Below are positions 1 through 12,017 of a stretch of DNA of 12,017 nucleotides, in pieces. Under the pieces are notes generated by a model. That model was given only the letters and a program-made list of their open reading frames with translations, was not told the DNA's origin and ran no database searches. Within the stretch, counting starts at the first letter, position 1. Every line of letters begins with the position of its first letter. The translations under genes were made by a program, and so were the position numbers. This DNA comes from Bdellovibrionia bacterium (GTDB lineage Bacteria > Bdellovibrionota > UBA1018), in the NCBI GenBank assembly GCA_049424145.1, contig JBMSSC010000087.1, positions 1-12,017 of the forward strand. Reading direction: 5' to 3'.

Positions 1-138
1 AGCCGCCGCCGTGCCTCCAAAGACAATCAGAATTCCGTGGGGGTCTAAAAACATCGTAATGTCTTTGGCCGTGGTTGAAAGCGCGTAATACATCACGGAA
101 ATCCCGCCTAAGATGCCTGCAAGAGAGGATAGGTTCAT
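1..138 (-). CDS. motA: MotA/PomA-family stator A subunit, N-terminal 46 aa (continues beyond window edge)
   Basis: Manual translation from ATG at 138: MNLSSLAGILGGISVMYYALSTTAKDITMFLDPHGILIVFGGTAAA. This is TM1 followed by the F-x-D-x-x-[GS]-x-L-I-V-x-G-G-T signature of MotA/PomA TM2. The start overlaps the upstream stop (ATGA, 135-138). Confidence 0.88.
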   Translation of the reverse strand, partial: MNLSSLAGILGGISVMYYALSTTAKDITMFLDPHGILIVFGGTAAA

Positions 139-647
139 GATTTTCCAGTCTCCTTCCTTAAGATACTCTTCCAGAGCTGAAATTGACTGATGACATAGTT
201 GTCATCGAGGTCTCTGAGGCGGGTGGCGAGAGTTTGGATTGCGTTTTGATAGAATTCAAGCTTCATGGTGGGATCCGACTCCAAGAGTTCCATGAACTTT
301 TTCTTGGAGACATAAAATAGAGTGCACGGGGTGATGGCTCGGACAGTGGCTGTTCTGGGGTTTTCATCCAAAAGAGAGAGCTCGCCAAAGAAGCTTCCCC
401 CTTTGAGTTGAGCCAGATCGTAGTGATCTCCGGTGAGTTTATTGGTCTTAAAGATCCCGGCCGTTCCCTCTAAGAGCAGGTAGAGTCCCCAGCTAAGCTC
501 CCCTTCAATGATGATGTTCGTATGAGATTCAACTCTTAGGTGCTGGCCCAAGGAGATCAAGCGTTCAAGATTATTTTGGTTTAACGATTGAAGCAGTTTG
601 ATCTTCTTCAGTAAGGAGAACTCCGAGATCTCAGCAGGGGCATTCAT
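135..647 (-). CDS. Stand-alone cyclic nucleotide-binding (CNB) domain protein, 170 aa
   Basis: IIIEGE..GLYLLLEG and an intact phosphate-binding cassette FFGELSLLDENPRTATVRA, followed by a C-helix. There is no room for a Crp/Fnr HTH. Confidence 0.92.
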   Translation of the reverse strand: MNAPAEISEFSLLKKIKLLQSLNQNNLERLISLGQHLRVESHTNIIIEGELSWGLYLLLEGTAGIFKTNKLTGDHYDLAQLKGGSFFGELSLLDENPRTATVRAITPCTLFYVSKKKFMELLESDPTMKLEFYQNAIQTLATRLRDLDDNYVISQFQLWKSILRKETGKS

Positions 648-2896
648 CCGGCGCTCCTTTCTGTGACCACGGTTGCATCCGGTGGATTATCGGAGAACAT
701 CCGCTCGTTGGTTTCAATGAGGTTAATCAGTCCTTCATTGGCCATGATCTTCATCCGGTTTAAGACTTTGCGCTCCACGTTTTGATAGGTCTCTCGACTA
801 AAGACTGGGGCAATCGCAATTTCCTCTTCAAGTTCAGCGACAAGATCCTTCGGGGCTTTTGAGTAAATTGCATGACGCACCTCTTGAGGTGCTCCTTTTA
901 AGAACGGGATGAGCTCCTCGTGTTTTAGGCTTAAGACCACCTCGAGTAACTGTCCATCGCGGAGGTAGCGGAGCGTATCGGTGCTGACGAGCTTACTTTT
1001 GACCGTACGAGCACTGTCGGGATTGCTGAGCTCAAGGCTTTTTAAAACCGACTTCTGAATCGCATGTCCAGTCCGCTCCAGAAGTCCCACGAGCACCTCA
1101 GATCCAGGTAAAGCCTCCGTGTTGAGTCGGGGATTTTCTTTTTTCTTTCTCTTTAAGGCAGCTGCAACGTTGAAGATGAAGTCCTTGGGAAGATAATCGA
1201 TTCGAGAGAGCTCCGTGAGGACGGACATCCGCTCTTCGGCCTCCATTTGACTATAGATTGCAGCGCGCTTCTGAGGATCACACTGCGTGAGCACAATGGA
1301 TTTCACTGTGATGGATTCGGCCCGGATGAGCTCAAGGATTTGAGTTCCATCCATCTCACTTAAGAAGTCAAAGAAGTTGGAGGATCGATTGCCGAGGACC
1401 ACTAGTTTTCCAGCCGTGGTTCGGCTGTGGAGTTTTTTTAGGAGATTAAATTTTTCCTCATCCTTTAAAGTGATGGGATTTTTGGCGTAGTAATCCATTA
1501 ATTCCATGAGATCGCTTTGTAAGGTGGGGTCTCTAAGCATCTCAACGATGATTCCGTCGCCAAAGAGGTGAATGTACTCGGCAGTGACCTCAACCCCTTC
1601 CTCAGTGAGCACTTTACTAAACACTTGTTTTGCCACTCGAGGGCTCTGAGCAAAAATTGCGGTGAGCTCTTCGTGGAGTCGCTCAATCTCATAGCGCTGG
1701 GAGATGGGGTTGACGTTCTCAGAGAGAGAGCCCCCCCCGTCCTGAGGGGCGGAGCGAGCGATCGTAGGGGCATTGGCTGAGGCATTCTCTGAGGGGCTTA
1801 AGGGGTAAATGCGCGAGTAAGGAGAGCTGCTTGGGTTGGATTTTTTGAGTAAAGAGACGGATATAAAAATCAAAAGAGCAAGAACGGAGAGGGCAAACAG
1901 GAGAGCTGGGATTCTGAGTTTTTGCATTTCCTGGATGACGGCGTCTCCGTTTTCAACTCGCTCAATCTTTTCAATTCGTTCGGTTTTCTCTAGTCGAGAG
2001 TTATTGGACGAGCTTGTGCTACTGGATTCATTTCGGCTGTCGGTCTTATACTCACTTTTCCTCTCTGGGTCATTGGCCTCGGAGGCAAGTCCCCGAGAGC
2101 CACTAAAGCGAGCCACGGGAAACCTTAAGTTCTTAGCCGTCAGTCGGACGTTTCGATAGGCGTTTGTTTTAAGCCTCAGCATCTCAAGGAGATTGGATTT
2201 CTCCTCGGGGCTTAGGCTCTCATCCATCAGGATGGTGGCTGAGATTTCTTTGATTCGAACCGTGGTCCCCCCTTCTTGAATGAACTCGCCTAGGGCTCCG
2301 TACTGGGCCTCTTCGCCATTGACCACTTCCGTCTGCAAGTTGAAATCCCCAAGCAGGCAGGCTGAGTTACAGAACTCACGAAGCAGGGACTCTACTTTTC
2401 CTTGAAACTCTTTGGAGATTTTCTCTCGGATCTCGGTGATTTTGGTCTCCGAGCCTTGGGGCATTGGAAAGTGTGCCGTTTGAGCATCAATCTTCACCGG
2501 GTAATCCAGTGTGTCTAAGAATTGTTGAATGAGCTCAATCAACTTCGTTCGAGAAACAGGTCCCACCTTGTCATCAATGAGAATTTTCACGACGGAGGAC
2601 TCAGGGGTGAGCTCCGATGAGTTTCGGATGTCCTCTTCAAAACCGGGGGAGAAGAGTTGGGAGGAGCCCGGGCTCACCACGGTGCTCACGCTAACGAGGC
2701 GGCAGTACTCATGGCAGTATCGATCGAGCAGGGGCTCTAGGAGGTGGCGAATTTGGTTTTCTGAGGATTTTTTTACTACTTCAAAAGACGAAAGAGCAAA
2801 ACCCAGGGCGGGAGCAATCCAGAACGAGGCGATTGACCCCACTAAAATCAGCAGAGGAACCCACTTGAGTTGAAGGCCTCTCTGCGCTTGCTTCAT
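644..2896 (-). CDS. Membrane-anchored FliF-like/FliG fusion protein, 750 aa
   Basis: N-terminal signal/TM (aa ~12-35). Two ~100-aa RBM3-like repeats (aa ~45-144, ~160-260; IKEISATILMDESLSPEEKSNLLEML resembles FliF IKRLSVAVLVD..LS.EEL..I..LV). TM at aa 329-350. FliF-C-like helices (LHEELTAIFAQSPRVAKQVFSKVLTEE). FliG-N (GVEVTAEYIHLFGDGIIVEML), FliG-M (FFDFLSEMDGTQILELIRAE...) and FliG-C (FLKGAPQEVRHAIY...EGLINL). The FliG part is clear; the FliF-like part is less certain. Confidence 0.8.
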   Translation of the reverse strand: MKQAQRGLQLKWVPLLILVGSIASFWIAPALGFALSSFEVVKKSSENQIRHLLEPLLDRYCHEYCRLVSVSTVVSPGSSQLFSPGFEEDIRNSSELTPESSVVKILIDDKVGPVSRTKLIELIQQFLDTLDYPVKIDAQTAHFPMPQGSETKITEIREKISKEFQGKVESLLREFCNSACLLGDFNLQTEVVNGEEAQYGALGEFIQEGGTTVRIKEISATILMDESLSPEEKSNLLEMLRLKTNAYRNVRLTAKNLRFPVARFSGSRGLASEANDPERKSEYKTDSRNESSSTSSSNNSRLEKTERIEKIERVENGDAVIQEMQKLRIPALLFALSVLALLIFISVSLLKKSNPSSSPYSRIYPLSPSENASANAPTIARSAPQDGGGSLSENVNPISQRYEIERLHEELTAIFAQSPRVAKQVFSKVLTEEGVEVTAEYIHLFGDGIIVEMLRDPTLQSDLMELMDYYAKNPITLKDEEKFNLLKKLHSRTTAGKLVVLGNRSSNFFDFLSEMDGTQILELIRAESITVKSIVLTQCDPQKRAAIYSQMEAEERMSVLTELSRIDYLPKDFIFNVAAALKRKKKENPRLNTEALPGSEVLVGLLERTGHAIQKSVLKSLELSNPDSARTVKSKLVSTDTLRYLRDGQLLEVVLSLKHEELIPFLKGAPQEVRHAIYSKAPKDLVAELEEEIAIAPVFSRETYQNVERKVLNRMKIMANEGLINLIETNERMFSDNPPDATVVTERSAG

Positions 2897-3657
2897 AGAG
2901 ATCCTCCGGTGTAGAGACTTCTTTTCCGATCGAGGAATTTTTTCAGATTCAGGTTTCTAGGATCAAATCGAAGGGCTTGGCTCCAGGCCTGAAGCGCCAG
3001 GTCCTTGCGTCCGAGCTTATCCAGCAGGGTTCCCCTCATTTCATAGAGTTTGGAATCCGTTTGATACTGCCGAATGAGTTCGTCCGTCTCAATGAGGGCG
3101 GCTTCAAATCGGGTCATGCGATAGAGTTGTTTGATGTGATCCACGGCACCTAGGTAGCTTGAGGAGTGAGTGGAGGCGCCCTCTTCACTTGGAACGAGAT
3201 CTAAGGTGCGCTCAATGTCCCGAATTCGAGATTCATCCTCCGCAGCGCCTTGGGGAAATCGATTGACGATGTCACGATCAGAGAACGTCGGGGCGCGGTT
3301 TTTATAAGATTCATCGACCATTTCTGGGGAATCCATCATGGAACCAGACAGAGAGGTAAGCCCACGTCCTGAGTTTTTAAATGCAGGGGAGACGGGCAGC
3401 ACAAATTCACTTAAGTTTCTTCGGTCCCCAGGGATCTCCAGCTCCACGGAGCGATCCCCTTTTTTGGTTCTCAGGATCATGTTCTGATGATTCTCCGAGG
3501 TGAGTTCGGGGCGGTATTGGGAAAACGGATTGGAGATGGGTTGCCGCAGGGGCTTTGGATTCACCCCAAAAATCGTATTCAGCCCAGCGCAGCCTGAGGC
3601 TCCGAGGCTTAAACCGATCAGTAGAGCGGCAGATGATGGGGTCCAAATCTGTTTCAA
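2893..3657 (-). CDS. TPR-containing lipoprotein, 254 aa
   Basis: TTG start after GAGG. Lipobox LGASG^C (Cys23). C-terminal TPR helices (KLYEMRGTLLDKLGRKDLALQAWSQALRFDPRN). ATGA overlap with the next gene. Confidence 0.85.
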   Translation of the reverse strand: MKQIWTPSSAALLIGLSLGASGCAGLNTIFGVNPKPLRQPISNPFSQYRPELTSENHQNMILRTKKGDRSVELEIPGDRRNLSEFVLPVSPAFKNSGRGLTSLSGSMMDSPEMVDESYKNRAPTFSDRDIVNRFPQGAAEDESRIRDIERTLDLVPSEEGASTHSSSYLGAVDHIKQLYRMTRFEAALIETDELIRQYQTDSKLYEMRGTLLDKLGRKDLALQAWSQALRFDPRNLNLKKFLDRKRSLYTGGSL

Positions 3658-3701
3658 CTTCGTTTCCTCATGGCTTCATTAAGTTTCAACTTTTCGTTCC
3701 T
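3651..3701. repeat. Imperfect direct repeat duplicating the RBS plus TTG start of the TPR lipoprotein gene
   Basis: gtttcaacttcgtttcct (3651-3668) and gtttcaacttttcgttcct (3683-3701). On the minus strand these read AGGAAACGAAG-TTG-AAAC and AGGAACGAAAAG-TTG-AAAC. Confidence 0.6.
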
Positions 3702-4826
3702 TTAAAACAAAACACTCACTCCTAAACCGTATTCAAGACCTGTAATCGTGGCCTGTCCTCCTAGGAAGGAGGTGGAGGCCGGGCGGTAGCCTAAATTGAT
3801 TCCAGTGGCAAAGTGTTTGCCTAATCTCCACTCATAGCCTGCGCGCACGAGCCCGCCTAGGTAGCCCGAGGCATAGGTTCCTCCAATGCCTAAAAGGAGG
3901 CTTCCTCGGAGTAAATTATAGTTCTCCTCCTCTCCAATGAAGTTCCACGCATGTAAGAAGACGAGGGTGAGGTTAAATCCAAAGCTGGCATAGAGATCGG
4001 TTGAAACCGCTGCAGAGCGATTGACGATGGTGGAGGCATTGGTCATATAATTTGCCTCAAAGCCCACTTCTTTTTTTCGGTTATCGTAGCGTTCCATCAT
4101 GCGATAGCCCAAAGCCAGATTCCCAGTGGGGCTTGGGTGATTGGGTTGAACGAGGTAGTAAATGATCAGACGAGATTGCACCAAGGGAGCATATTCGGTG
4201 GCTCGATGGGCTGAATCAATCTGGGTATAATCCACGCCTCGTTTAAAGGCAGCTGATCGGGAGTTCTCCGAGTTGTAGCTTCGGGACCAGAGGATGCTGT
4301 CGGTTTCTGGGTCGGTGATGGTCATGGACATCACGATCCCGGTGGGCTCAAAACTGAAGGCCACGTCCATGAATCGGGCAATCCCCGTTGCTTTAGCAAT
4401 CCGGGTGAGCTCCATGGGATCCGTCTCTGGGGATTTGATGACGATTTGGTCCCCATCGAGGCTGGTTTTTCTCGCACGACAGGGGAGGCATTGAATCACG
4501 CGAGTCTTGGTGTTTTTTAAAATCGTTTCGGTGATGAGAAGCTCTAAGTGGGCTTTAAAGGAGGGGGGAACGTTCTCGCTTAAGGCGAGGTTTCGGATGG
4601 AAAGGTCCTTAAGTCCGTTGACGTTTCCGTTTTTAAGATCGAACTCAAAGTCGCCCAGAACCTCATCTAAGACTTGGTAAAAGTCTCGCGTGCCTCCACT
4701 GGGGGAGGCTGCGGCCTGGAGTGGAGCAATCGGCGTGCTCGGCGTTTCAGCATGCGCCTGAAGACCACTGAGTAGAACTCCGCTCAGGATGCTCAAGGTG
4801 CTCAAGATGCGGATGAATGCGCTCAT
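3702..4826 (-). CDS. Secreted protein: FlgO/CsgG/LpoB-like N-terminal domain plus putative C-terminal outer-membrane beta-barrel (ORF open to 4898; ATG 4826 preferred)
   Basis: Sec signal MSAFIRILSTLSILSGVLLSGLQAHA^E. Alpha/beta domain ending IAKATGIARFMD...MTITDPETDSILWSRSY (D-x-ET-x-x-I-L-W-S pattern of CsgG/FlgO/LpoB-type folds), with a CLPC motif. The C-terminal ~170 aa are amphipathic Gly/aromatic strands ending GLEYGLGVSVLF (terminal Phe, BAM signal-like). Confidence 0.7.
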   Translation of the reverse strand: MSAFIRILSTLSILSGVLLSGLQAHAETPSTPIAPLQAAASPSGGTRDFYQVLDEVLGDFEFDLKNGNVNGLKDLSIRNLALSENVPPSFKAHLELLITETILKNTKTRVIQCLPCRARKTSLDGDQIVIKSPETDPMELTRIAKATGIARFMDVAFSFEPTGIVMSMTITDPETDSILWSRSYNSENSRSAAFKRGVDYTQIDSAHRATEYAPLVQSRLIIYYLVQPNHPSPTGNLALGYRMMERYDNRKKEVGFEANYMTNASTIVNRSAAVSTDLYASFGFNLTLVFLHAWNFIGEEENYNLLRGSLLLGIGGTYASGYLGGLVRAGYEWRLGKHFATGINLGYRPASTSFLGGQATITGLEYGLGVSVLF

Positions 4827-4983
4827 TGGATAGACTCGGTTTCGCACAGTTTTTTCTTCATGCTCCTTTCTCTGAGACTGAATCGGATTTTTATTCAAAG
4901 GAGTTTAGGTTTATCCCTAAGATGCATGAAAATCGTTTGATCTCTCTGAATAAGAGGAATGAGACCCGGTGGGTAGAAAACTC

Positions 4984-5011
4984 TAAGTGATTGGATAGGG
5001 GTTTCCGATAC
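4984..5011 (+). promoter_or_regulatory. Possible sigma28 (FliA)-type promoter for the lipoprotein gene
   Basis: TAAG-N16-TCCGATAC versus consensus TAAA-N15-GCCGATAA, 20 nt upstream of ATG 5032. Confidence 0.4.
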
Positions 5012-5031
5012 GTCTCTGAGTGGAGAGGGCT

Positions 5032-6096
5032 ATGGAGCAGTCGGTCAGAAAATGGAACATGAAGAAGGGAATGCAACTCACTGCAATCAGTGGGTTTGTT
5101 TTTGCTTTCGCATGTTCTACCGTAGAAATCATCCCCGCCCCAATGCCCAACCCTCCGGTGTTCACGAGCGTTCCGCATCCGGCAGGATCAGATTTGGGGG
5201 ATGTGGCTGCAATTTTTACCGATGAAATGGCTCCTCGAGATCCTGATTTTTTTAATCAGTGTGACGCAAAGTATCGAAAGCTCACAGAGCTCACCAAGAG
5301 TCGAGACGAGATTCATGAAGGTTTAAGAGAATTAGTTAAGCAGGATCCGGTTCATTATCATTGGTGTTTTTATGGCAAGATTTTGGATTTGGAAAAGTCA
5401 TTAAAGAATGAATCATTTGTAGAACTCAGGCAGAAGCGAATCCTCGATACGTTCGAGTTCTTGGCGCCTTTGGGTAAGGTTTTCTCCTCTGAGTACCACG
5501 ACTCTCGCTACTTAAGAGCAGCCGTGGTGCGATACCAGAAGTTGAGTGAGTGGGCCTTTTACCGAAGGCTTGAGCTCACTCCGGTTGGGACTTCTCAATT
5601 GGTGAAGTCGAGCAATCCTTTTGGACTCTGGCGAGATACATTGGATACGATTTCAGTTTTGGAGAAGTATCGGCTTTTAGCTCAACCCTCGGATCGACTC
5701 AAAGAGGATGCTGCAGCTTCGCTCATGGGTTCAGAGGCGGTGGAGCCTAAGCCCGTGCCTCAAGCTTCTCCTGTTCCCTCAGTTGCCAGTGGGGCTCAAA
5801 AGCAAACCCCAGAAGCGCCCATTGCTGCGCCTGTTGTCCCTGTGGCTCAGTCCCCAGCCCCCGTGATTCAAGCAGCAACGCCTCCGGTGAAGCCAGAAGT
5901 CTCAAAGGTCAAACCTCCTGCTTCAGCCTCAAAAGAAGCCAGTGCTGGGGCTCAGAAGAAGCCCGAACCCAAGAAAGTGGAGCCTGCCCCAAAGGCAGAT
6001 GAAGCCGTCTCCGACGAATCAGCCTCATCCGAAGAAAGTGGGGATCTGCAATTGCCCATTGAAGGAGAAGAGGCCAGTATGGATTCCTCAGGTTAG
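5032..6096 (+). CDS. Hypothetical lipoprotein with helical core and Pro/Ala/Lys-rich, acidic disordered C-terminal tail (start 5032 or 5059)
   Basis: GGAGAGG before ATG 5032. Signal MKKGMQLTAISGFVFAFA^C with a lipobox-like Cys. Core has two further Cys (NQCDA, YHWCFY). The last ~130 aa are low complexity. Confidence 0.78.
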   Translation: MEQSVRKWNMKKGMQLTAISGFVFAFACSTVEIIPAPMPNPPVFTSVPHPAGSDLGDVAAIFTDEMAPRDPDFFNQCDAKYRKLTELTKSRDEIHEGLRELVKQDPVHYHWCFYGKILDLEKSLKNESFVELRQKRILDTFEFLAPLGKVFSSEYHDSRYLRAAVVRYQKLSEWAFYRRLELTPVGTSQLVKSSNPFGLWRDTLDTISVLEKYRLLAQPSDRLKEDAAASLMGSEAVEPKPVPQASPVPSVASGAQKQTPEAPIAAPVVPVAQSPAPVIQAATPPVKPEVSKVKPPASASKEASAGAQKKPEPKKVEPAPKADEAVSDESASSEESGDLQLPIEGEEASMDSSG

Positions 6097-6146
6097 TCGG
6101 ATTTTTGGCGTCAATCTCAGTTGTGTCCGGTGAGTCCGGGACCCAC

Positions 6147-6893
6147 TCAGCAACTGGGGGGGAGTTTTTCTCGCTGGATTTTTGGATCGCCTGGGTTCCA
6201 ACTTAAAAAGGATCCATGAATTCTTGGAAATCCGATATTAATATATTGAGCGGCTCGATTGCCAACATGAAAACTCATCTCATCTAAGTCGTGGCAGTGA
6301 CCTAGGATCACAAAATCAGCACCCTGTGAAATCCGTTCAGCCGCATAACTACGAAACGTTCGTCTTAGGTACTCCATCTGCGCAAGCGGGAGGTTTTTGT
6401 GCTGGCTCCGGCTCTTTTGGCTGCTGAATTGCCCAAAGCGACTTAACCACTCCCCCGGTACAAGTGCAACGAGAGCCTTCATCAGTGGGCTTCGAAAAAA
6501 AAGTCGCAGGAGACGGTAGCCGTAGTCCCGGGGGTCCACGAGATCTCCGTGAGCACAATGAAAGATCTTTCCCTGCACTTCAATTTGAATCGTACGCGAA
6601 CAAACCGTGACGCCGGGAATTTTTTCAAACACCTTTTTCATCATAAAGTCATGGTTGCCTTCGATGTAGTAGATGCGAACCCCTCGCTGGGCTGCGGCTT
6701 GGATTTGATTAAAAAAAGAGGAATAAAGGTGGAGGAAGATGGTTTTATTGCCAACCCAGACATCAAACAAGTCCCCGGCAAGAACCAAGGTGTCGCTGGG
6801 CTTCGCACGCAGTTGGATGAGTGCAATGAGAGACGCATAAACGGGATCTTGGGGGCCCCAAATATGAAGATCGGAGACTGCAATTAAGCTCAT
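6147..6893 (-). CDS. lpxH: UDP-2,3-diacylglucosamine diphosphatase (LpxH-family metallophosphoesterase)
   Basis: Motifs SDLH, GDLFDVWVG, GNHDF, HGDLVDPRDYGY and GHCH in LpxH order and spacing. It has GNHD rather than the GNRD of E. coli LpxH. Confidence 0.8.
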   Translation of the reverse strand: MSLIAVSDLHIWGPQDPVYASLIALIQLRAKPSDTLVLAGDLFDVWVGNKTIFLHLYSSFFNQIQAAAQRGVRIYYIEGNHDFMMKKVFEKIPGVTVCSRTIQIEVQGKIFHCAHGDLVDPRDYGYRLLRLFFRSPLMKALVALVPGEWLSRFGQFSSQKSRSQHKNLPLAQMEYLRRTFRSYAAERISQGADFVILGHCHDLDEMSFHVGNRAAQYINIGFPRIHGSFLSWNPGDPKIQREKLPPSC

Positions 6894-6915
6894 CTAGATA
6901 TTGGGTTTAACGATT

Positions 6916-7302
6916 CTAAAGCTTCTGATCAAGGATTTTTCCGCAAAACTTCAGTTCCGAGGATTTTCCACCGCGCAGTTTAATGAACTCTTCGCCTGAG
7001 AATTGCCTTAGGGTCTTGCCGTTTGAGTCCTTTAAAATCACGCGTAACCCCAGGGAATGGGTTTCTAGATGAACGCTCAGTCCATGGGCCTGGGCTTGGC
7101 TATCGGACTGAAAGTCTTCGAGGGCTTGCTCCAGTTGTTGCGGTGAAAAGGACTCGTCTGAGGGGGACTCTTCAAACGGGGGTTTTCGATCCTTTTTACC
7201 GTGTTCTTGAGAAAACGATCGATCCGAAGAGGGGGAATCCTCTTTTCGGTCCCTCACCCCGCGGGGATATCCAAATGCTGTGGTTAGAGGTTGAATTTTC
7301 AT
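6916..7302 (-). CDS. flaG: FlaG-family flagellar protein, 128 aa
   Basis: Disordered N-terminus, then QLEQALEDF...GLSVHLE...LRVILKDSNGKTLRQFSGEEFIKL...GKILDQKL, matching the FlaG pattern (V.VVD..TGEVIRQIP.EE.L...G.L.D...). Lies directly downstream of a flagellin. Confidence 0.78.
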   Translation of the reverse strand: MKIQPLTTAFGYPRGVRDRKEDSPSSDRSFSQEHGKKDRKPPFEESPSDESFSPQQLEQALEDFQSDSQAQAHGLSVHLETHSLGLRVILKDSNGKTLRQFSGEEFIKLRGGKSSELKFCGKILDQKL

Positions 7303-7321
7303 TCGTCGAGCCTCATCTCAC

Positions 7322-7348
7322 GTGTCGGAAGAATTTTCCTGGGATTTA
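7322..7348 (-). promoter_or_regulatory. sigma28-type promoter for flaG(-lpxH)
   Basis: Minus strand TAAA-N15-TCCGACAC, just after the flagellin terminator and 19 nt upstream of the flaG ATG. Confidence 0.62.
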
Positions 7349-7351
7349 AAT

Positions 7352-7388
7352 GAAAAAAATCCCCGGAAGCTCGGTCACTTCCGGGGAT
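7352..7388 (-). terminator. Rho-independent terminator of the second flagellin gene
   Basis: Perfect 11-bp inverted repeat atccccggaag (7359-7369) / cttccggggat (7378-7388), followed on the minus strand by a T run. Confidence 0.88.
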
Positions 7389-7399
7389 GGGCTTAGAGA

Positions 7400-7437
7400 G
7401 GTTCTTTCTTCTCCCGAGATGGGGATTGGAAAGAACC
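7400..7437 (-). other. Additional stem-loop in the flagellin 3' UTR
   Basis: ggttctttc (7400-7408) / gaaagaacc (7429-7437) with an inner tccc/ggga stem. Confidence 0.5.
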
Positions 7438-7486
7438 AGGGCGCACTGGGAGAAGATAAAAACCCAAAGTCCAATGGCAGGATCAA

Positions 7487-8314
7487 TTAGAGCAGCTTGA
7501 GGGCCTGGGCAGGAGCTTGGTTTGCCTGCGCAAGAACCGCGATTCCGGCTTGCTGCAGGATGTTCGACTTGACGAGCTCATAGGTTTCTTGGGCCAGATC
7601 CGTATCCATGATGTTGGAGCGCGCTTGGGTGTACTGTTCTGTGATGTTTTGAATGGTTCGGTTCTCCGATAGGAGTCGGTTTTGGATGGCACCTAACGTG
7701 GCTCGCGTGCTTAAGACCTTACCAAAGGCCTCATCAATGACTCCCAGGGAGTCCTCTGCCCCACTTAAGGAGTTGAGGTTGATTCCGTCCACCCCGAGAG
7801 TTCTGGACCTGACATCGGCCAAGCGAGTATCAAACTGAAGACGATCGTTTTCTGAGTTTTCCGTGCCAACTTGGAACGTCAGGTTGTCGACCGAGCCGTT
7901 GAGCAGATGAATGCCGTTAAATGTGGTGGACTCGGCAATGTGATTGAATCCTTGGATAATGCTTTCGGCTTCCAGTTGGAGGGAGGCGCGTTCGTTTTCT
8001 CCCACCGTATCGGAGGCGGCTTGAATTCCTAACTCCCTGAGTCGGATCAACCCATTACTGAGTTCAGTCATGGCTCCCTCGGCTACTTGAGCAAAGGAGG
8101 CAGCGTCCATGGTGTTTCTCTCAGCTTGTTTGAGGGAGCGGATTTGTTTTCTCAACCGTTCGGCAATGGAGAGGCCTGCGGGGTCTTCTGCTGCACTGGT
8201 GATGCGCTCCCCTGAGGCAATGCGTTGAAAGCTCGTCTTTTGTTCCGACATGGATCGCGATAGCGAGTGGACGATGGAAAGTGAACTGAGATTGTTATTA
8301 ATGACTAAGCCCAT
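7487..8314 (-). CDS. fliC: Flagellin (short, D0/D1 only, divergent), 275 aa
   Basis: True start is ATG 8314 (MGLVINNN) after RBS AAGGAG. Motifs IASGERITSAAEDPAGLSIA, QVAEGAM, FNGIHLL, RATLGAIQNRL, ILQQAGIAVLAQAN. Confidence 0.95.
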   Translation of the reverse strand: MGLVINNNLSSLSIVHSLSRSMSEQKTSFQRIASGERITSAAEDPAGLSIAERLRKQIRSLKQAERNTMDAASFAQVAEGAMTELSNGLIRLRELGIQAASDTVGENERASLQLEAESIIQGFNHIAESTTFNGIHLLNGSVDNLTFQVGTENSENDRLQFDTRLADVRSRTLGVDGINLNSLSGAEDSLGVIDEAFGKVLSTRATLGAIQNRLLSENRTIQNITEQYTQARSNIMDTDLAQETYELVKSNILQQAGIAVLAQANQAPAQALKLL

Positions 8315-8373
8315 AAAAAAACTCCTTCTCCAGCAACCGAGAATTGGTTTTTTACGTCTGTCTCTGTTCAAGA

Positions 8374-8413
8374 CATGGCCCGTGCCCCTTCGTTTGGAGG
8401 GGGCACTTCCATG
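8374..8413 (-). promoter_or_regulatory. GC-rich stem-loop in the ~180-nt 5' leader of the second flagellin
   Basis: gtgcccc (8382-8388) / ggggcac (8400-8406), extended by catgg (8374-8378) / ccatg (8409-8413). The mRNA carries CAUGGAAG at the stem base. Confidence 0.55.
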
Positions 8414-8498
8414 GATTCCGCTCGTGTAACAGCAAGATACAGCAAGCAGACGCAAGTCAACTGAGCCTCAGGGGGATTCCCTTGCGCTCTTATGACTC

Positions 8499-8525
8499 GT
8501 ATCGGCACGCTGCGTCAAAACTTGA
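8499..8525 (-). promoter_or_regulatory. sigma28 (FliA) promoter of the second flagellin
   Basis: Minus strand TCAA-N15-GCCGATAC (TCAAGTTT-N11-GCCGATAC), near consensus. Confidence 0.85.
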
Positions 8526-8596
8526 GTAAAAAATACAACTATTAAGATCTGAAGCTTCAAAGTGGGCTAGCTTCCGAGAATCTCAGGACATTTTCG

Positions 8597-8633
8597 AAAA
8601 CCCTGGGGAGAGCCCAAGAGGACCCTCCCCAGG
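8597..8633 (-). terminator. Probable intrinsic terminator of the first flagellin
   Basis: cctggggag (8602-8610) / ctccccagg (8625-8633), extendable with G-U pairs on the minus strand and followed by GTTTT. It begins 21 nt after the stop codon. Confidence 0.7.
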
Positions 8634-8654
8634 TGGTGTTCGAAGAACTGCAGA

Positions 8655-9488
8655 TTAGCTAATGAGCTTGAGAGCTAACATGTTGCTTTGATTGGCTTGA
8701 CTGAGGACTGACGTTCCTGCTTGGGCCAGGATGTTATTTTTTGCTAAATCAGCGGCCTCTTGAGCCATATCCGCATCTCGGATGCGGCTATTTGCACTGG
8801 AGAGGTTTTCGTCATAGACCCTCAAGGTGTTGACGGCCGATTGGAGTCGGGTTTGTAAGGACCCCAGTTCTGCACGGTTTTCAATGAGGGTATTGACGGA
8901 TCCATCAATCGTCGAGAGGGCTTCCCGAGCTCCCTCTTTGGTTGCAACGGAGAGGCCCGTTAAACCCAGTTTGCCCAGCGATACATCGGTCTTGTTCGTA
9001 TCAATGGCAAATCGATCTTCATCCGGATTATTGTGAGTTCCGATTTGGACATCAATGTTATTGCCATTTCCAGACAATAACTTCATGCCGTTGTACTCGG
9101 TGGAGGTCGAAATTCTCACAATTTCTTGTTTCAATTGTGTGATTTCCTTATCAATGAAGCCTCTTTCCGTATCTCCGATGGTGTCGGAAGCCGACTGAAT
9201 GGCGAGTTCCCGGAATCGAACTAAGATGTTGCTGATCTCGTTCATTCCCCCTTCGGCCGTTTGGATCATAGAAACGCCGTCGCTTGCGTTTTTGATGTCC
9301 TGGCGGATCGAGCGAATCTGGCCTTTCATTTTCTCCGAGATCGCAAGGCCTGCCGCATCGTCTGCGGACTTATTGATTCGAGAGCCCGAAGCAATGTGTT
9401 CTAAAGTCTCTTTTTGAGCGGCAGTGCTTGCGTTTAAGAAGCGCTGCGCAACGAGTGATTGTACGTTCGTACTAATGACGATACCCAT
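8655..9488 (-). CDS. fliC: Flagellin (short, D0/D1 only), 277 aa
   Basis: Canonical motifs IASGSRINKSADDAAGLAISE, IQTAEGGM, RAELGSLQTRL, SRIRDADMAQE, ILAQAGTSVLSQAN. RBS GGAGGAG. Confidence 0.97.
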   Translation of the reverse strand: MGIVISTNVQSLVAQRFLNASTAAQKETLEHIASGSRINKSADDAAGLAISEKMKGQIRSIRQDIKNASDGVSMIQTAEGGMNEISNILVRFRELAIQSASDTIGDTERGFIDKEITQLKQEIVRISTSTEYNGMKLLSGNGNNIDVQIGTHNNPDEDRFAIDTNKTDVSLGKLGLTGLSVATKEGAREALSTIDGSVNTLIENRAELGSLQTRLQSAVNTLRVYDENLSSANSRIRDADMAQEAADLAKNNILAQAGTSVLSQANQSNMLALKLIS

Positions 9489-9646
9489 AACTCCTCCAAA
9501 TATCCTCCTTGCCCTAAAAAGTCTTAGGACAAAGCAGTCCCAGGCCTTCTAGACCAGGTGGTCTCATGTTTTACTGTGCAAGGATTTGCTGTACCCTTGC
9601 TTGGCTTAACCTTCGGATGAACCCATTTCATCTGAGGGTTGTTACG
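9489..9646 (-). promoter_or_regulatory. Structured ~158-nt flagellin 5' leader with tandem GGA motifs (candidate CsrA sites)
   Basis: Hairpins at 9608-9640, 9578-9600, 9551-9564 and 9509-9532, then AAGGAGGA and TTGGAGGAG just before the ATG. Confidence 0.55.
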
Positions 9647-9652
9647 TTGATT

Positions 9653-9680
9653 AAATCGGTCAGGTAATAAAAATACTTTA
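9653..9680 (-). promoter_or_regulatory. sigma28 (FliA/SigD) promoter of the first flagellin
   Basis: Minus strand TAAA-N16-ACCGATTT with an A-rich tract upstream. Confidence 0.7.
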
Positions 9681-9770
9681 GACTTTTTTAGTCGGGTATT
9701 AAAGAAGGGTTGAAGAGGAGTTTAGGTTCGCTTCCCACGGCGACTGAAAGCAGCGTGAACGTGTGAAAAA

Positions 9771-10697
9771 CTATCGAGAAATCAGATTCGCAGCCGAATA
9801 GGGATCGATCTGTTTTTTCAAAAGTTGGTCTAAAACTTCTTGCCCCGAAGGGGTTTGAAAAGCCTCAATAACTGACTGATTCAGTCTTTCTGTGAGGATG
9901 TCCAGGACCTCGCTTTTGATCCATTCCCGGGCTTGAAGGAGCCGTTTGCCGCTTTGCGTTAAGTAGGTTTGATGAGACTGAATGCTTTGAGCCAAGGCCT
10001 CAATGCCCCCGTTTTTCACCGCCTCGGTCTTTAAAACGGGAATCATCCAGCTGGTTTCATCATGAGGAGCCAGTCCAATCATGTTGATGAGTTCTTTCAA
10101 CAGAGCATCGGCACCACTGCGGTCACTTTTATTGATCACAAAGAGGTCTGCAATCTCCATGAGCCCAGCCTTCATCACCTGAATGGAGTCCCCACTTTCG
10201 GGAACAAGCACAACAATAATACTCTGCGCAAGCTTCAGGATGTCGAGCTCCGTTTGTCCCACCCCGGCTGTTTCCACTAAGATCACGTCAAATCCTGCGG
10301 CATCTAAGATGAGCACCACTTCCTTAGTTGCATGGGAGAGTCCCCCATGTTTTCCCCGAGTGCCGAGTGATCGAATGTACACGCCTGGATCCCCCGAGTG
10401 CTGCTGCATTCGGATTCGATCTCCCAGCACGGCTCCCCCTGAAAACGGACTGGAGGGGTCAACGGCCACGATGGCTACTTTTTTTCCTTCTTTCCTGAGT
10501 TGGGCCGTGAGGCGATCCACGAGGGTGGATTTTCCGGCACCGGGGGGACCGGTGATGCCCCAGACCTGAGCCTTGCCGGTTCGGGGATAAAGAGAAGCTA
10601 AGAGCTCAGGAATATCGGAGTCTCGGTTCTCCACTTTCGAGATCAGGCGGGCAAGGGCTAATTTTTGACCGGCAAGCAGATCTTGGACTAAGTTCAT
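9771..10697 (-). CDS. meaB: Methylmalonyl-CoA mutase-associated GTPase MeaB/ArgK, 308 aa
   Basis: GITGPPGAGKST (P-loop), AVDPSSPFSGGAVLGDRIRM, ETAGVGQ, MKAGLMEIAD, NKSD. Start ATG 10697 (MNLVQDLL) avoids overlap with the divergent gene. Confidence 0.95.
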   Translation of the reverse strand: MNLVQDLLAGQKLALARLISKVENRDSDIPELLASLYPRTGKAQVWGITGPPGAGKSTLVDRLTAQLRKEGKKVAIVAVDPSSPFSGGAVLGDRIRMQQHSGDPGVYIRSLGTRGKHGGLSHATKEVVLILDAAGFDVILVETAGVGQTELDILKLAQSIIVVLVPESGDSIQVMKAGLMEIADLFVINKSDRSGADALLKELINMIGLAPHDETSWMIPVLKTEAVKNGGIEALAQSIQSHQTYLTQSGKRLLQAREWIKSEVLDILTERLNQSVIEAFQTPSGQEVLDQLLKKQIDPYSAANLISR

Positions 10698-10733
10698 CCT
10701 TGATCCATCCCAAGAAAATGCCGATATTGCAAC

Positions 10734-11999
10734 ATGGAACCCCAATCTCTCGGAGTCAAAGAGTCCCTGTGTGCTTTAGCCATTCTCCACTGCCTTCCTC
10801 TGGTTTTATTTGCTTTATGGGAGGATCACTTCAGGGGTTCACTCCAAGAACTCAGGCAAGCGCAGGAGAAAGTCGAAGTCGACCGGGAACGTGATCAGAT
10901 CAAGTTTGTCAGCTTCTTAGTCCTCCTCACTCAGCTTCTTTTGTTCTTGGGCTCCTTTGATTTACAAGCCGCCCATCCCTCGGGGGCTTTGGGGATTTTC
11001 GTCCTCGCTCTTTTGGGCCAGTTTTTCATTCAATCTCAAGCCGAGGCTCACTTGCAGTCCCCAGAGATTTCTGCAAAGGAGGGGGGGATGCTTTTATGGA
11101 AGGCCTTCCTTTTTTGGCTCTTGGGAGTGGGGGTGAACCTGGCGTGCTTGGTGGGCTCAACGGGTCTGACTTTGGTTTTACTTCAGCTGCTTCAACCGAA
11201 GCTGGCCCTAGGGCTTCTGGCGTTGATCGTCTCAGCAATTTCTGGGGTTCTCTTTGGGATTCATCTCAACTTTTTATTCTCTCCTTTTTACTTAAAGAAC
11301 CTATTCCCCATCCAACCGTTGGAGGATTTGAGATTAAGGCGCTTGCTTTCTGAGTGCTTCACTCGATTTCAGCTTCCAGTGCCTGATCTTCTCGTGGTTC
11401 ATCTGAAGACTCGAACCTTGAGCCAAAATATCTTAGCAGGATCCCCCTACCGCAAGCACAGGCTGAAGGCTGCCTACTTGATCTCCCATCAGGTCTTAAG
11501 CCTACTTTCTGAAAAGGAGCTTTTGGCTCTGGTTCTCAACCAGGTGAGTTATTTCGTTCTCAATCAAGCGGGGAAAAGAAATCGACTCCTGGGGGGGCTG
11601 GTCTTATTGACGGCTGGGCTTGGGACGGCGGCTATTTTTCTGGGAAACCGGTGGTTTCAAAAAGAGGGATTCACGGAGCTTTTTGGGGTGATGGTTTCCT
11701 TGAGTTTACTCACCCTCTCCTATCGCTTTTTGTCTCGTCAGATTCAAAAGCAGGAGCTTGAGCGAGATTCCTATACGATTTTAACGATGGGGGTTTCGTA
11801 TTCAGATTTCTCTACGGCACTAAGAAAGCTCGATTCCCTCCAGGCGGAGTTTCAACTTCTCACTCAATCAGGTGAGGGGAAACATCCGTTGGCTCAGGGG
11901 CTGCCTGAGACTGAAAAAAGACTGGAGGCTTTAAAGAAAGCCATTCCCTTGGAACCCTCTTCGTCCTCGCAAGAAAGCTCGTTTTCTCAAGCCGCTTAG
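10734..11999 (+). CDS. Polytopic membrane protein, M48 (HtpX/Ste24) peptidase homolog lacking zinc ligands
   Basis: About 7 hydrophobic segments. M48 scaffold PLEDLRLRRLL..F...P, LSEKELLALVLNQVSY (expected HELGH), QELERD (E.EAD), ALRKL, LPETEKRL (expected HP....RI). Confidence 0.75.
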   Translation: MEPQSLGVKESLCALAILHCLPLVLFALWEDHFRGSLQELRQAQEKVEVDRERDQIKFVSFLVLLTQLLLFLGSFDLQAAHPSGALGIFVLALLGQFFIQSQAEAHLQSPEISAKEGGMLLWKAFLFWLLGVGVNLACLVGSTGLTLVLLQLLQPKLALGLLALIVSAISGVLFGIHLNFLFSPFYLKNLFPIQPLEDLRLRRLLSECFTRFQLPVPDLLVVHLKTRTLSQNILAGSPYRKHRLKAAYLISHQVLSLLSEKELLALVLNQVSYFVLNQAGKRNRLLGGLVLLTAGLGTAAIFLGNRWFQKEGFTELFGVMVSLSLLTLSYRFLSRQIQKQELERDSYTILTMGVSYSDFSTALRKLDSLQAEFQLLTQSGEGKHPLAQGLPETEKRLEALKKAIPLEPSSSSQESSFSQAA

Positions 12000-12017
12000 A
12001 GTTAGAGGGGCTTTGCA

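Follow-up and report, generated by a model that had tools for sequence, protein, structure and literature searches.

A predicted membrane-anchored FliF-like/FliG fusion with replaced switch motifs, encoded beside motAB genes in Bdellovibrionota

The stretch of DNA analyzed here (the window) comprises the 12,017 nucleotides of contig JBMSSC010000087.1 (positions 1 to 12,017, assembly GCA_049424145.1) from a Bdellovibrionia bacterium. On its minus strand it encodes a protein of 750 amino acids in which a predicted FliF-like periplasmic region and a membrane helix are fused to the middle and C-terminal domains of the flagellar rotor protein FliG. Within the FliG part, the residues that bind the switch protein FliM have been replaced and the torque helix has become more acidic, and genes for a MotAB-type stator lie in the same operon. 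The interval highlighted in the initial annotation, 719 to 1375 (minus strand), translates as residues 508 to 726 of this open reading frame (ORF; 644 to 2896).

Architecture and predicted fold

644 to 2896, minus strand: membrane-anchored FliF-like/FliG fusion, 750 amino acids (ORF; Pfam FliG_M and FliG_C above cut-off; structural model; fold matches)
2465 to 2806, minus strand: periplasmic domain 1, residues 31 to 144, predicted FliF S-ring (RBM3)-like fold (VIA-align)
2117 to 2452, minus strand: periplasmic domain 2, residues 149 to 260, predicted to share the helix-strand order of domain 1 (DSSP of the model)
1847 to 1915, minus strand: hydrophobic helix, residues 328 to 350, presumed inner-membrane anchor (sequence; helix H316-350 in the model)
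1133 to 1345, minus strand: FliG middle domain, residues 518 to 588 (PF14841, E = 3.2e-08; fold match 4fq0)
719 to 1039, minus strand: FliG C-terminal domain, residues 620 to 726 (PF01706, E = 1.9e-13; fold match 1qc7)

An AlphaFold2 model built from 21 orthologues (mean predicted local distance difference test score, 73; predicted template modeling score, 0.29) lays out two periplasmic alpha/beta domains, the membrane helix, a helical segment at residues 397 to 502, and every helix of FliG M and C; residues 683 to 695 form the torque helix. The whole predicted model was searched against 48,161 solved chains (VIA). The middle domain matched Helicobacter pylori FliG-M (4fq0; Z = 11.8, root mean square deviation [rmsd] 1.8 Å over 80 residues), and the C-terminal domain matched Thermotoga maritima FliG-C (1qc7; Z = 13.7, rmsd 1.8 Å over 89 residues). 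By VIA-align, periplasmic domain 1 resembled the S-ring of FliF (8z5v, Z = 12.0, rmsd 2.8 Å over 99 residues; 8z4d, Z = 10.7), and in the whole-model search a FliF match (6scn; Z = 9.8, rmsd 11.1) covered both periplasmic domains. The fusion is thus predicted to retain an intact FliG fold and to carry a periplasmic domain like that of the FliF S-ring.

The FliG_M and FliG_C Pfam matches recur in all 21 orthologues, and the identity of the FliG part to flagellar FliG is 16 to 18%. The FliG equivalog TIGR00207 scores 52.3 bits, below its cut-off of 226.7, and towards a possible FliG N-terminal domain the phmmer and hhalign alignments gave a weak, gapped extension (PF14842 in 2 of 21 orthologues, E about 0.1). 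Assignment to the MgtE intracellular N domain was rejected (PF03448, 19.1 bits against a cut-off of 25.9, with no further MgtE domain), as was decay into a pseudogene, because the ORF has no internal stops and the replacements described below are invariant.

Replacement of the switch motifs

Conservation was assessed in 77 orthologues (76 complete, nonduplicate FliG parts from 80 collection loci plus the window protein; mean pairwise identity across the region, 63%), mostly from uncultured Bdellovibrionota, and compared with 21 canonical FliGs of the same lineage. The register was taken from phmmer against solved FliGs, MAFFT with Escherichia coli FliG, and an independent profile-profile alignment with hhalign (probability 98.95), which was ungapped from the Gly-Gly linker through the C terminus. 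E. coli numbering is used for FliG and MotA sites unless residues of the fusion are named.

1301 to 1318, minus strand: E527-S-I-T-V-K532 in place of the EHPQ FliM patch (ESITV is 1304 to 1318); Glu in 77/77 (E125 kept), Ser or Thr in 77/77 (for H126), Thr in 77/77 (for Q128), Lys or Arg in 75/77 (for I130)
1211 to 1213, minus strand: E562, a charge reversal of the EHPQR arginine (R160); Glu in 77/77 against Arg in 21/21 canonical FliGs
1103 to 1108, minus strand: P597-G598 in place of the Gly-Gly linker; Pro-Gly in 77/77
980 to 991, minus strand: L636-V-S-T639 in place of MFxF; Leu in 77/77, both Phe gone in 77/77

In the flagellar motor, EHPQR binds FliM and the MFXF hinge is thought to reorient the torque helix at switching (PMC6700473). 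The initial annotation had read these motifs as changed from EHPQR to ESITV, from Gly-Gly to Pro-Gly, and from MFxF to LVST. The linker and hinge changes hold throughout the family, where the hinge consensus is LVS[LVI]. The slot stays hydrophobic, because T639 of the window protein is atypical and Leu, Val, Ile, or Met stands at the fourth position in 72/77. The change at the FliM patch is likewise fixed, but it needs correction in two respects: its Glu is retained, and the arginine of the motif is the distant R160 rather than the next residue (Ile in E. coli, Thr in 21/21 FliGs of the lineage). That this distant Arg is Glu562 in every orthologue had been missed, and it strengthens the case for loss of the switch patch.

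These replacements are not a lineage-wide FliG trait, which we rejected on the canonical copies: EHPQ, R160, Gly-Gly, MFVF, R281, and D289 are each kept in 21/21. The comparison with FliGs of the lineage, named at the outset as a possible refutation, therefore left the claim standing. Sequence entropy across the remodeled patch is 0 to 0.27 bits, compared with a median of 0.9. Loss of FliM binding by the fusion is well supported by these sequence comparisons.

Charges of the torque helix

896 to 898, minus strand: K667, equivalent to K264 (the Lys of LKGA), kept; Lys or Arg in 72/77
812 to 859, minus strand: torque helix region, K680 to I695 (alignments; helix H683-695 in the model)
794 to 799, minus strand: S700 in the R297 slot and R701, basic, one position on; slot basic in 0/77, Lys or Arg at the next position in 73/77

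The alignments equate K680 with N277, P682 with S279, D684 (845 to 847) with R281, E688 with I285, and E691/E692 (821 to 826) with D288/D289. Among the 77 orthologues, N277 has become Lys or Arg in 76, S279 Pro in 75, R281 Asp or Glu in 76 and Asn in 1, I285 Glu or Asp in 77, and R287 Glu in 53, while position 288 is acidic in 77 and position 289 in 72 (Glu in 72). The net charge of positions 277 to 292 is −3.2 in the orthologues versus −0.7 in canonical FliG. The acid at the R281 position and the retention of the acidic pair and of the LKGA lysine were thus correctly recognized in the window protein and extend to its family. The Lys one residue before the Asp is also present, yet it is ancestral, occurring in 21/21 canonical FliGs (Lys or Arg in 60/77 orthologues). 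The equation of GPVR with APVF was mistaken: the multiple alignment and hhalign give PVFS, and APVF arises from a gap in the phmmer pairwise alignment. A one-residue shift that would make K683 the equivalent of R281 was rejected on the ungapped hhalign register and the hydrophobic anchors L685, L689, and I693.

Operon organization and the cognate stator

1 to 138, minus strand: 5′ part of the operon motA, 46 codons (the window ends at codon 46)
135 to 647, minus strand: stand-alone cyclic nucleotide monophosphate (cNMP)-binding protein, overlapping the stop of the fusion (PF00027)
2893 to 3657, minus strand: tetratricopeptide repeat (TPR) protein with a lipoprotein-like N terminus (Pfam TPR below cut-off)
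3702 to 4898, minus strand: secreted protein of 398 amino acids, without a Pfam or NCBIfam match

The gene order (barrel-like gene, TPR gene, fusion, cNMP gene, motA, motB) holds at 20 of 20 relative loci, 19 of which have the cNMP gene. Among 68 loci with room downstream of the fusion, motA was found in 67, motB in 66, and the cNMP gene in 57; upstream, the TPR and barrel genes were each present in 61 of 61 loci with room. The 398-amino-acid secreted protein likely ends in an outer membrane barrel, judging from its sequence, and the cNMP protein has a conserved FGE...R-S/T-A motif and a conserved C-terminal QYQLW segment. Contig C91 (L071) ends in a motA fragment that starts at about residue 47 and is followed by motB; it is the best match to the operon motA of relatives, and we infer that it is the remainder of the window's motA and hence of the cognate stator.

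Operon MotA was examined in 69 sequences and in a second, partly overlapping set of 120 homologues, with the register checked on solved MotAs. Compared with the latter, the rotor motif of operon MotA is shortened by a one-residue deletion, and both arginines and the glutamate are gone. In the 69 sequences, no residue at 90 or 91 is basic (0/69 each) and position 98 is acidic in 1 and basic in 11; position 87 is Lys or Arg in 69, position 88 in 68, position 99 is Asp or Glu in 67, and E150 has become Arg in 69. The larger set shows the same pattern (basic at 90, 0/120; acidic at 98, 0/120). The channel residues P173, T209, and P222 are kept in 21/21, and operon MotB has the Asp motif WxxxYAD in 21/21; it also carries the plug and the OmpA domain (PF13677, PF00691). 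The idea that the fusion has its own MotA is supported by the adjoining motA gene and by change at exactly the rotor-facing residues. Where compensating changes at R90 and E98 had been suggested as a check, both sites have indeed changed, but as a joint loss and not as a charge swap.

Further charge differences were seen within the stator. Helix 144-157 of operon MotA (L071:3555-4196, minus strand) shifts in net charge from −6.3 in flagellar-type proteins to +1.5, and operon MotB carries an acidic stretch ahead of its membrane helix; this internal charge inversion is possibly common to several fusion operons. E150R was considered as a partner of D684 and rejected, because this helix is also basic in operon types in which R281 is retained; the helix around E150 lines the inside of the MotA ring. 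At another locus (L046:2967-4572, contig C160), a TPR/PEGA lipoprotein gene is followed by motA and by a motB cut at the contig end, and this MotA also is without R90 and E98 and may be part of a further module.

The genome has flagellar rotor and stator genes elsewhere. Canonical fliG, fliM, and fliN are on contig C50, where fliG sits with the fliF, fliH, and fliI genes, none of which was found in the fusion operon, and an E. coli-type motAB pair is on contig C60. Across the order, fliM occurs in 71/71 genomes and the fusion in 54/71, all 54 among the fliM carriers; strong fusion matches were restricted to the order in a sample of 201 genomes of the phylum. The proposal of a rotor without FliM and FliN agrees with the replacement of the His, Gln, and Arg of the FliM patch in every orthologue, as far as sequence can indicate, while the cells themselves retain fliM. 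E. coli-type MotA was found in 62/71 genomes of the order; among 30 such sequences, E98 and a Lys in the motif are each present in 30/30. Their rotor motif has K-x-N-P for R-x-x-G and is one residue shorter. Seven of the nine genomes without this type have the fusion, and all five tested (5/5) carry a MotA with R90, K91, and E98. Wherever examined, genomes thus carry an ordinary stator apart from operon MotA.

Ancestry and related fusions

A more distant set of 49 sequences (about 30 to 45% identity, covering the FliG part) was chosen from 150 listed library-wide matches. In this set an acid occupies the R281 slot in 49, position 288 in 46, and position 289 in 41; R160 is Glu in 41, S279 is Pro in 49, and H126 is absent. 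The near and distant sets share 15 conserved acidic positions, D684 among them. S528, T530, and K532 are not kept, K264 is basic in 5, and R297 is acidic in 42. The tree carries long-branch warnings and has odd branch lengths close to its root, and only its starred groups were used. It unites the near set with the distant one (88/69), and this group in turn with two proteins that have Gln at position 281 (99/98).

Distant-clade fusions of loci L248 to L266 follow DsbA-like and L,D-transpeptidase genes and lie beside a cNMP gene (twice on the opposite strand), which is adjacent in 7 of the 11 distant loci with more than 800 bp downstream; the periplasmic domains contain invariant Cys pairs. No stator of the distant clade was found, the best 120 of 694 matches in the operon-MotA search being close relatives only. 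An embedding search, which we treat as a lead only, also pointed to clusters of long FliG-domain proteins in Myxococcota, Balneolota, Bacteroidota, and Pseudomonadota.

The sister operon types all lack EHPQ, Gly-Gly, and MFxF, yet they have a basic residue at 281 (27/30 in C18-type fusions, read by eye, with an insertion that makes the register less sure). These fusions thus have the loss of the switch motifs in common, and the R281 reversal is specific to this branch. The same genome has a C18 operon (L044:99-5263) with a 628-amino-acid fusion without a Pfam match, a barrel-like gene, motA, motB, and a HEAT protein gene; in that fusion the R281 slot holds Lys, and R90 and E98 are both present in the accompanying MotA. 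Stand-alone proteins consisting of FliG_C alone also occur, one of 157 amino acids (L048:374-847, equivalent to C29:10373-10846) and counterparts of 140 to 154 amino acids in L134, L135, and L136.

A putative rotor without a switch

We lean, with some reservation, towards the interpretation that the fusion is the torque-receiving rim of a ring turned by the MotAB of the same operon, without a FliM/FliN/CheY switch and in one default direction. The ring would assemble through the S-ring-like domains and through FliG M-C stacking, and its own MotA5B2 would engage the acidic torque helix by way of basic residues other than R90; the likely new contact would bring the acids D684, E688, E691, and E692 to the basic MotA residues 87 and 88, both partners of the R281-E98 pair having been given up. 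In the absence of FliM there would be no CheY-driven change of state, leaving one-way rotation as the default expectation. Such a motor would most likely be coupled, at the outer membrane, to the secreted partner and the TPR lipoprotein. Its cross-talk with the flagellar motor would probably be poor.

Published motor data bear on this proposal. MotA R90 pairs with FliG D288/D289 and E98 with R281 (PMC12505986), the former contact, with D289, being tied to docking and the latter to torque (PMC4030992); the rotor-facing surface of MotA is the RxxG..xLE motif (bioRxiv 10.1101/2021.01.07.425829). Joint loss of R281 and E98 should be tolerated, since in enteric motors motA E98K is suppressed by FliG R281V and R281W (PMC4030992). 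These charges are redundant in a chimeric Vibrio motor: K284A or R317A (K264 and R297) slow counterclockwise rotation only, and rotation persists in stators with R88A/K89A or E96Q/E97Q/E99Q, being abolished only in the quintuple mutant (PMC6079164). The sequence does not reveal the direction of rotation; K264 and the shifted R297, present here, are lost in the distant clade.

Several observations weigh against this interpretation. In the model, D684 stands at the start of the torque helix, directly after P682. Asp and Glu are favored at helix starts for structural reasons, and part of the conservation of D684 may be structural. MotA R90 was lost although D288/D289 are acidic, so that the change is not a simple swap, and Lys or Arg at 87/88 with an acid at 99 is also found in canonical Clostridium MotA. 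The FliG and MotA changes probably represent one old event on one stem branch and hence provide no signal of repeated coevolution. Sister operons do not respect the pairing: by eye, C18-type fusions keep K281 with a MotA that is basic at 90 in 13/13 and acidic at 98 in only 7/13, and Bdellovibrio-type operons have R/K281 in 6/6 and MotA R90 in 6/6 but an acidic residue at 98 in 0/6. On these sequences, the R281-E98 pairing is not strict across fusion operons. Neither motA, motB, TPR, nor barrel genes were found near distant-clade fusions in 19 metagenome loci (0/19; 5 with ~6 kb downstream). Finally, insulation is not readable from charges, because the Vibrio motor still rotates after multiple neutralizations (PMC6079164). 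The suggestion that the rotor is electrostatically matched to its MotA therefore stands insofar as both sides have changed, and is weakened by the single ancestral branch and the sister operons; matching, and insulation from flagellar stators, are plausible. We regard as possible but doubtful the more far-reaching proposal of a naturally orthogonal FliM-free rotor-stator pair in which the R281-E98 and R90 contacts have given way to an acidic-rotor/basic-stator code, and which shares one membrane with the flagellar motor and with the second, canonically charged fusion motor without cross-talk, a cyclic nucleotide-binding protein possibly gating it instead of CheY.

The retained and lost contacts could also be read as those of a scaffold that does not rotate, in which the FliG part docks and activates the operon MotAB for TonB/Tol-like work on outer membrane partners and D684 is mainly a helix-start residue. 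Such a scaffold would account for the loss on both sides of E98-R281, said to matter most for torque (PMC4030992, PMC6079164), for the retention of the docking-linked FliG acids (77/77 and 72/77), for the Pro at S279 (75/77; distant clade, 49/49) directly before K683-D684, and for the distant clade's loss of K264 (basic in only 5/49) and acidic R297 slot (42/49). However, the docking partner, MotA R90, is lost too, the S-ring-like periplasmic domain seen in the model would predict a ring, the acid at D684 occurs in 125/126 sequences, which appears stricter than the usual helix-start preference, and MotB has a plug and an OmpA domain as in flagellar stators. We consider the scaffold rather unlikely.

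Two further explanations assign the fusion a regulatory role. The remodeled patch (E527, S528, T530, K532, E562, R565) is invariant and not decayed, and it might form a replacement switch or clutch that binds a new partner, most likely the cNMP protein, and confers gating or reversal by cyclic nucleotides; the cNMP gene overlaps the stop of the fusion, is adjacent at 57/68 loci and at 7/11 distant loci without motA, and encodes the conserved motifs noted above. Yet at 10 loci motA directly follows the fusion with no cNMP gene between, and the Glu, Ser, Thr, Glu, and Arg of the patch are unchanged in 10/10; three patch residues (S528, T530, and K532) are not retained in the distant clade, and an internal K532-E562 salt bridge or neighboring subunits may hold the patch in place. 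A complex prediction for fusion residues 398 to 738 with the cNMP protein scored 0.00 and counts neither way. We judge a replacement switch to be unlikely. It is quite improbable that the system is a flagellar accessory in which the operon MotAB is an extra stator on the ordinary rotor, to be parked or regulated by the fusion. All 54 fusion genomes (54/54) carry fliM, flagellin genes lie in the window and beside the operon in many relatives, and three Bdellovibrio bacteriovorus motAB pairs, one motA of which lies in a sister operon, have been reported for one flagellum. On the other hand, operon MotA is without R90, residue 91, and E98 of RxxG..xLE (the Bdellovibrio type keeps R90), a canonical stator is separately present in 62/71 genomes and in 5/5 tested exceptions, and the B. 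bacteriovorus FliL Bd1076 bound MotB3, not MotA2/MotB2, in a two-hybrid assay (PMC11323537).

Accounts of flagellar torque generation place R281, D288/D289, R90, and E98 at its conserved core and count FliM/FliN among the parts of any functioning rotor. The family described here retains the FliG fold and a plugged MotAB without the switch patch or the R281-E98 pair. It permits a direct test of the contacts required for a 5:2 stator to turn a ring, and it bears on how stators of different types keep off one another's rotors within a single cell. The genome offers three versions: the flagellar pair, a fusion operon with near-canonical charges, and the window operon. It also raises the question of whether one of the three B. 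bacteriovorus motAB pairs, generally assigned to the flagellum, is part of a module of this kind.

Neighboring genes

Divergent from the operon, an ORF of 358 amino acids (5020 to 6096, plus strand), lipoprotein-like and without a Pfam match, is present in 18/20 relative loci. A protein of 353 amino acids with an N-terminal Cys-pair, zinc ribbon-like segment is encoded directly after motB (L071:1207-2268, minus strand) at most relative loci. Positions 6147 to 10745 (minus strand) hold an lpxH-like gene, an ORF of 128 amino acids, two flagellin genes, and meaB; flagellin genes lie near the operon in many relatives. Adjoining meaB is a multipass membrane protein of 421 amino acids (10734 to 11999, plus strand), without a Pfam or NCBIfam match, homologues of which lie near the operon in several relatives.

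Comparison with known systems

With flagellar FliG (PF14841/PF01706; TIGR00207; 3hjl, 1lkv, 1qc7, 4fq0) the fusion shares the M and C folds, the helix order, E125, D288/D289, and K264; unlike flagellar FliG, it is membrane anchored, lies outside a fliFGH operon, and has H126, Q128, R160, Gly-Gly, MFxF, and R281 replaced. As in the flagellar interface (R90/E98/E150 with R281/D288/D289/K264/R297; PomA RxxG..xLE), MotA still presents a basic patch and FliG an acidic one, whereas operon MotA is neutral at R90, 91, and E98, E150 is Arg in 69/69, and R281 is acidic. No published data on R281D were found in the literature search.

The second FliG of B. bacteriovorus (CAE80783.1, 577 amino acids; operon motA CAE80789.1) has the same architecture and has also lost H126, R160 (Glu), Gly-Gly, and MFxF; unlike the window fusion, it keeps R281, its MotA keeps R90, and there is no cNMP gene. 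CAE80783.1 is probably Bd3014, and CAE80789.1 probably motA2, Bd3021. In the literature covered, CAE80783.1 is listed simply as an additional copy of fliG (PMC3539863), and the three motAB pairs of this bacterium are treated as serving one flagellum (Morehouse 2011, via citing papers). Borrelia FliG1 is likewise a second, divergent FliG paralogue, dispensable for flagellum assembly (PMC7225975). By its published description it differs from the window fusion in being part of the flagellar motor at one pole, with neither a membrane fusion nor a stator operon of its own mentioned there. The literature covered contains no account of the module; Morehouse 2011, outside that coverage, may discuss the fliG paralogue.

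Among published proteins, an E. coli full-length FliF-FliG fusion is clockwise biased (PMC6700473), and the nearest case in the sources available is the short FliF-FliG fusion of Chlamydiaceae (Bergeron 2016, PMC4768692). Compared by architecture only, each is a natural single chain that runs from two periplasmic ring-building domains through a membrane helix to a FliG part. The chlamydial protein, however, is ~330 amino acids long, FliG-M-like only, and linked to an injectisome, whereas the fusion described here has 750 amino acids, includes FliG-C, and is accompanied by its own motAB.

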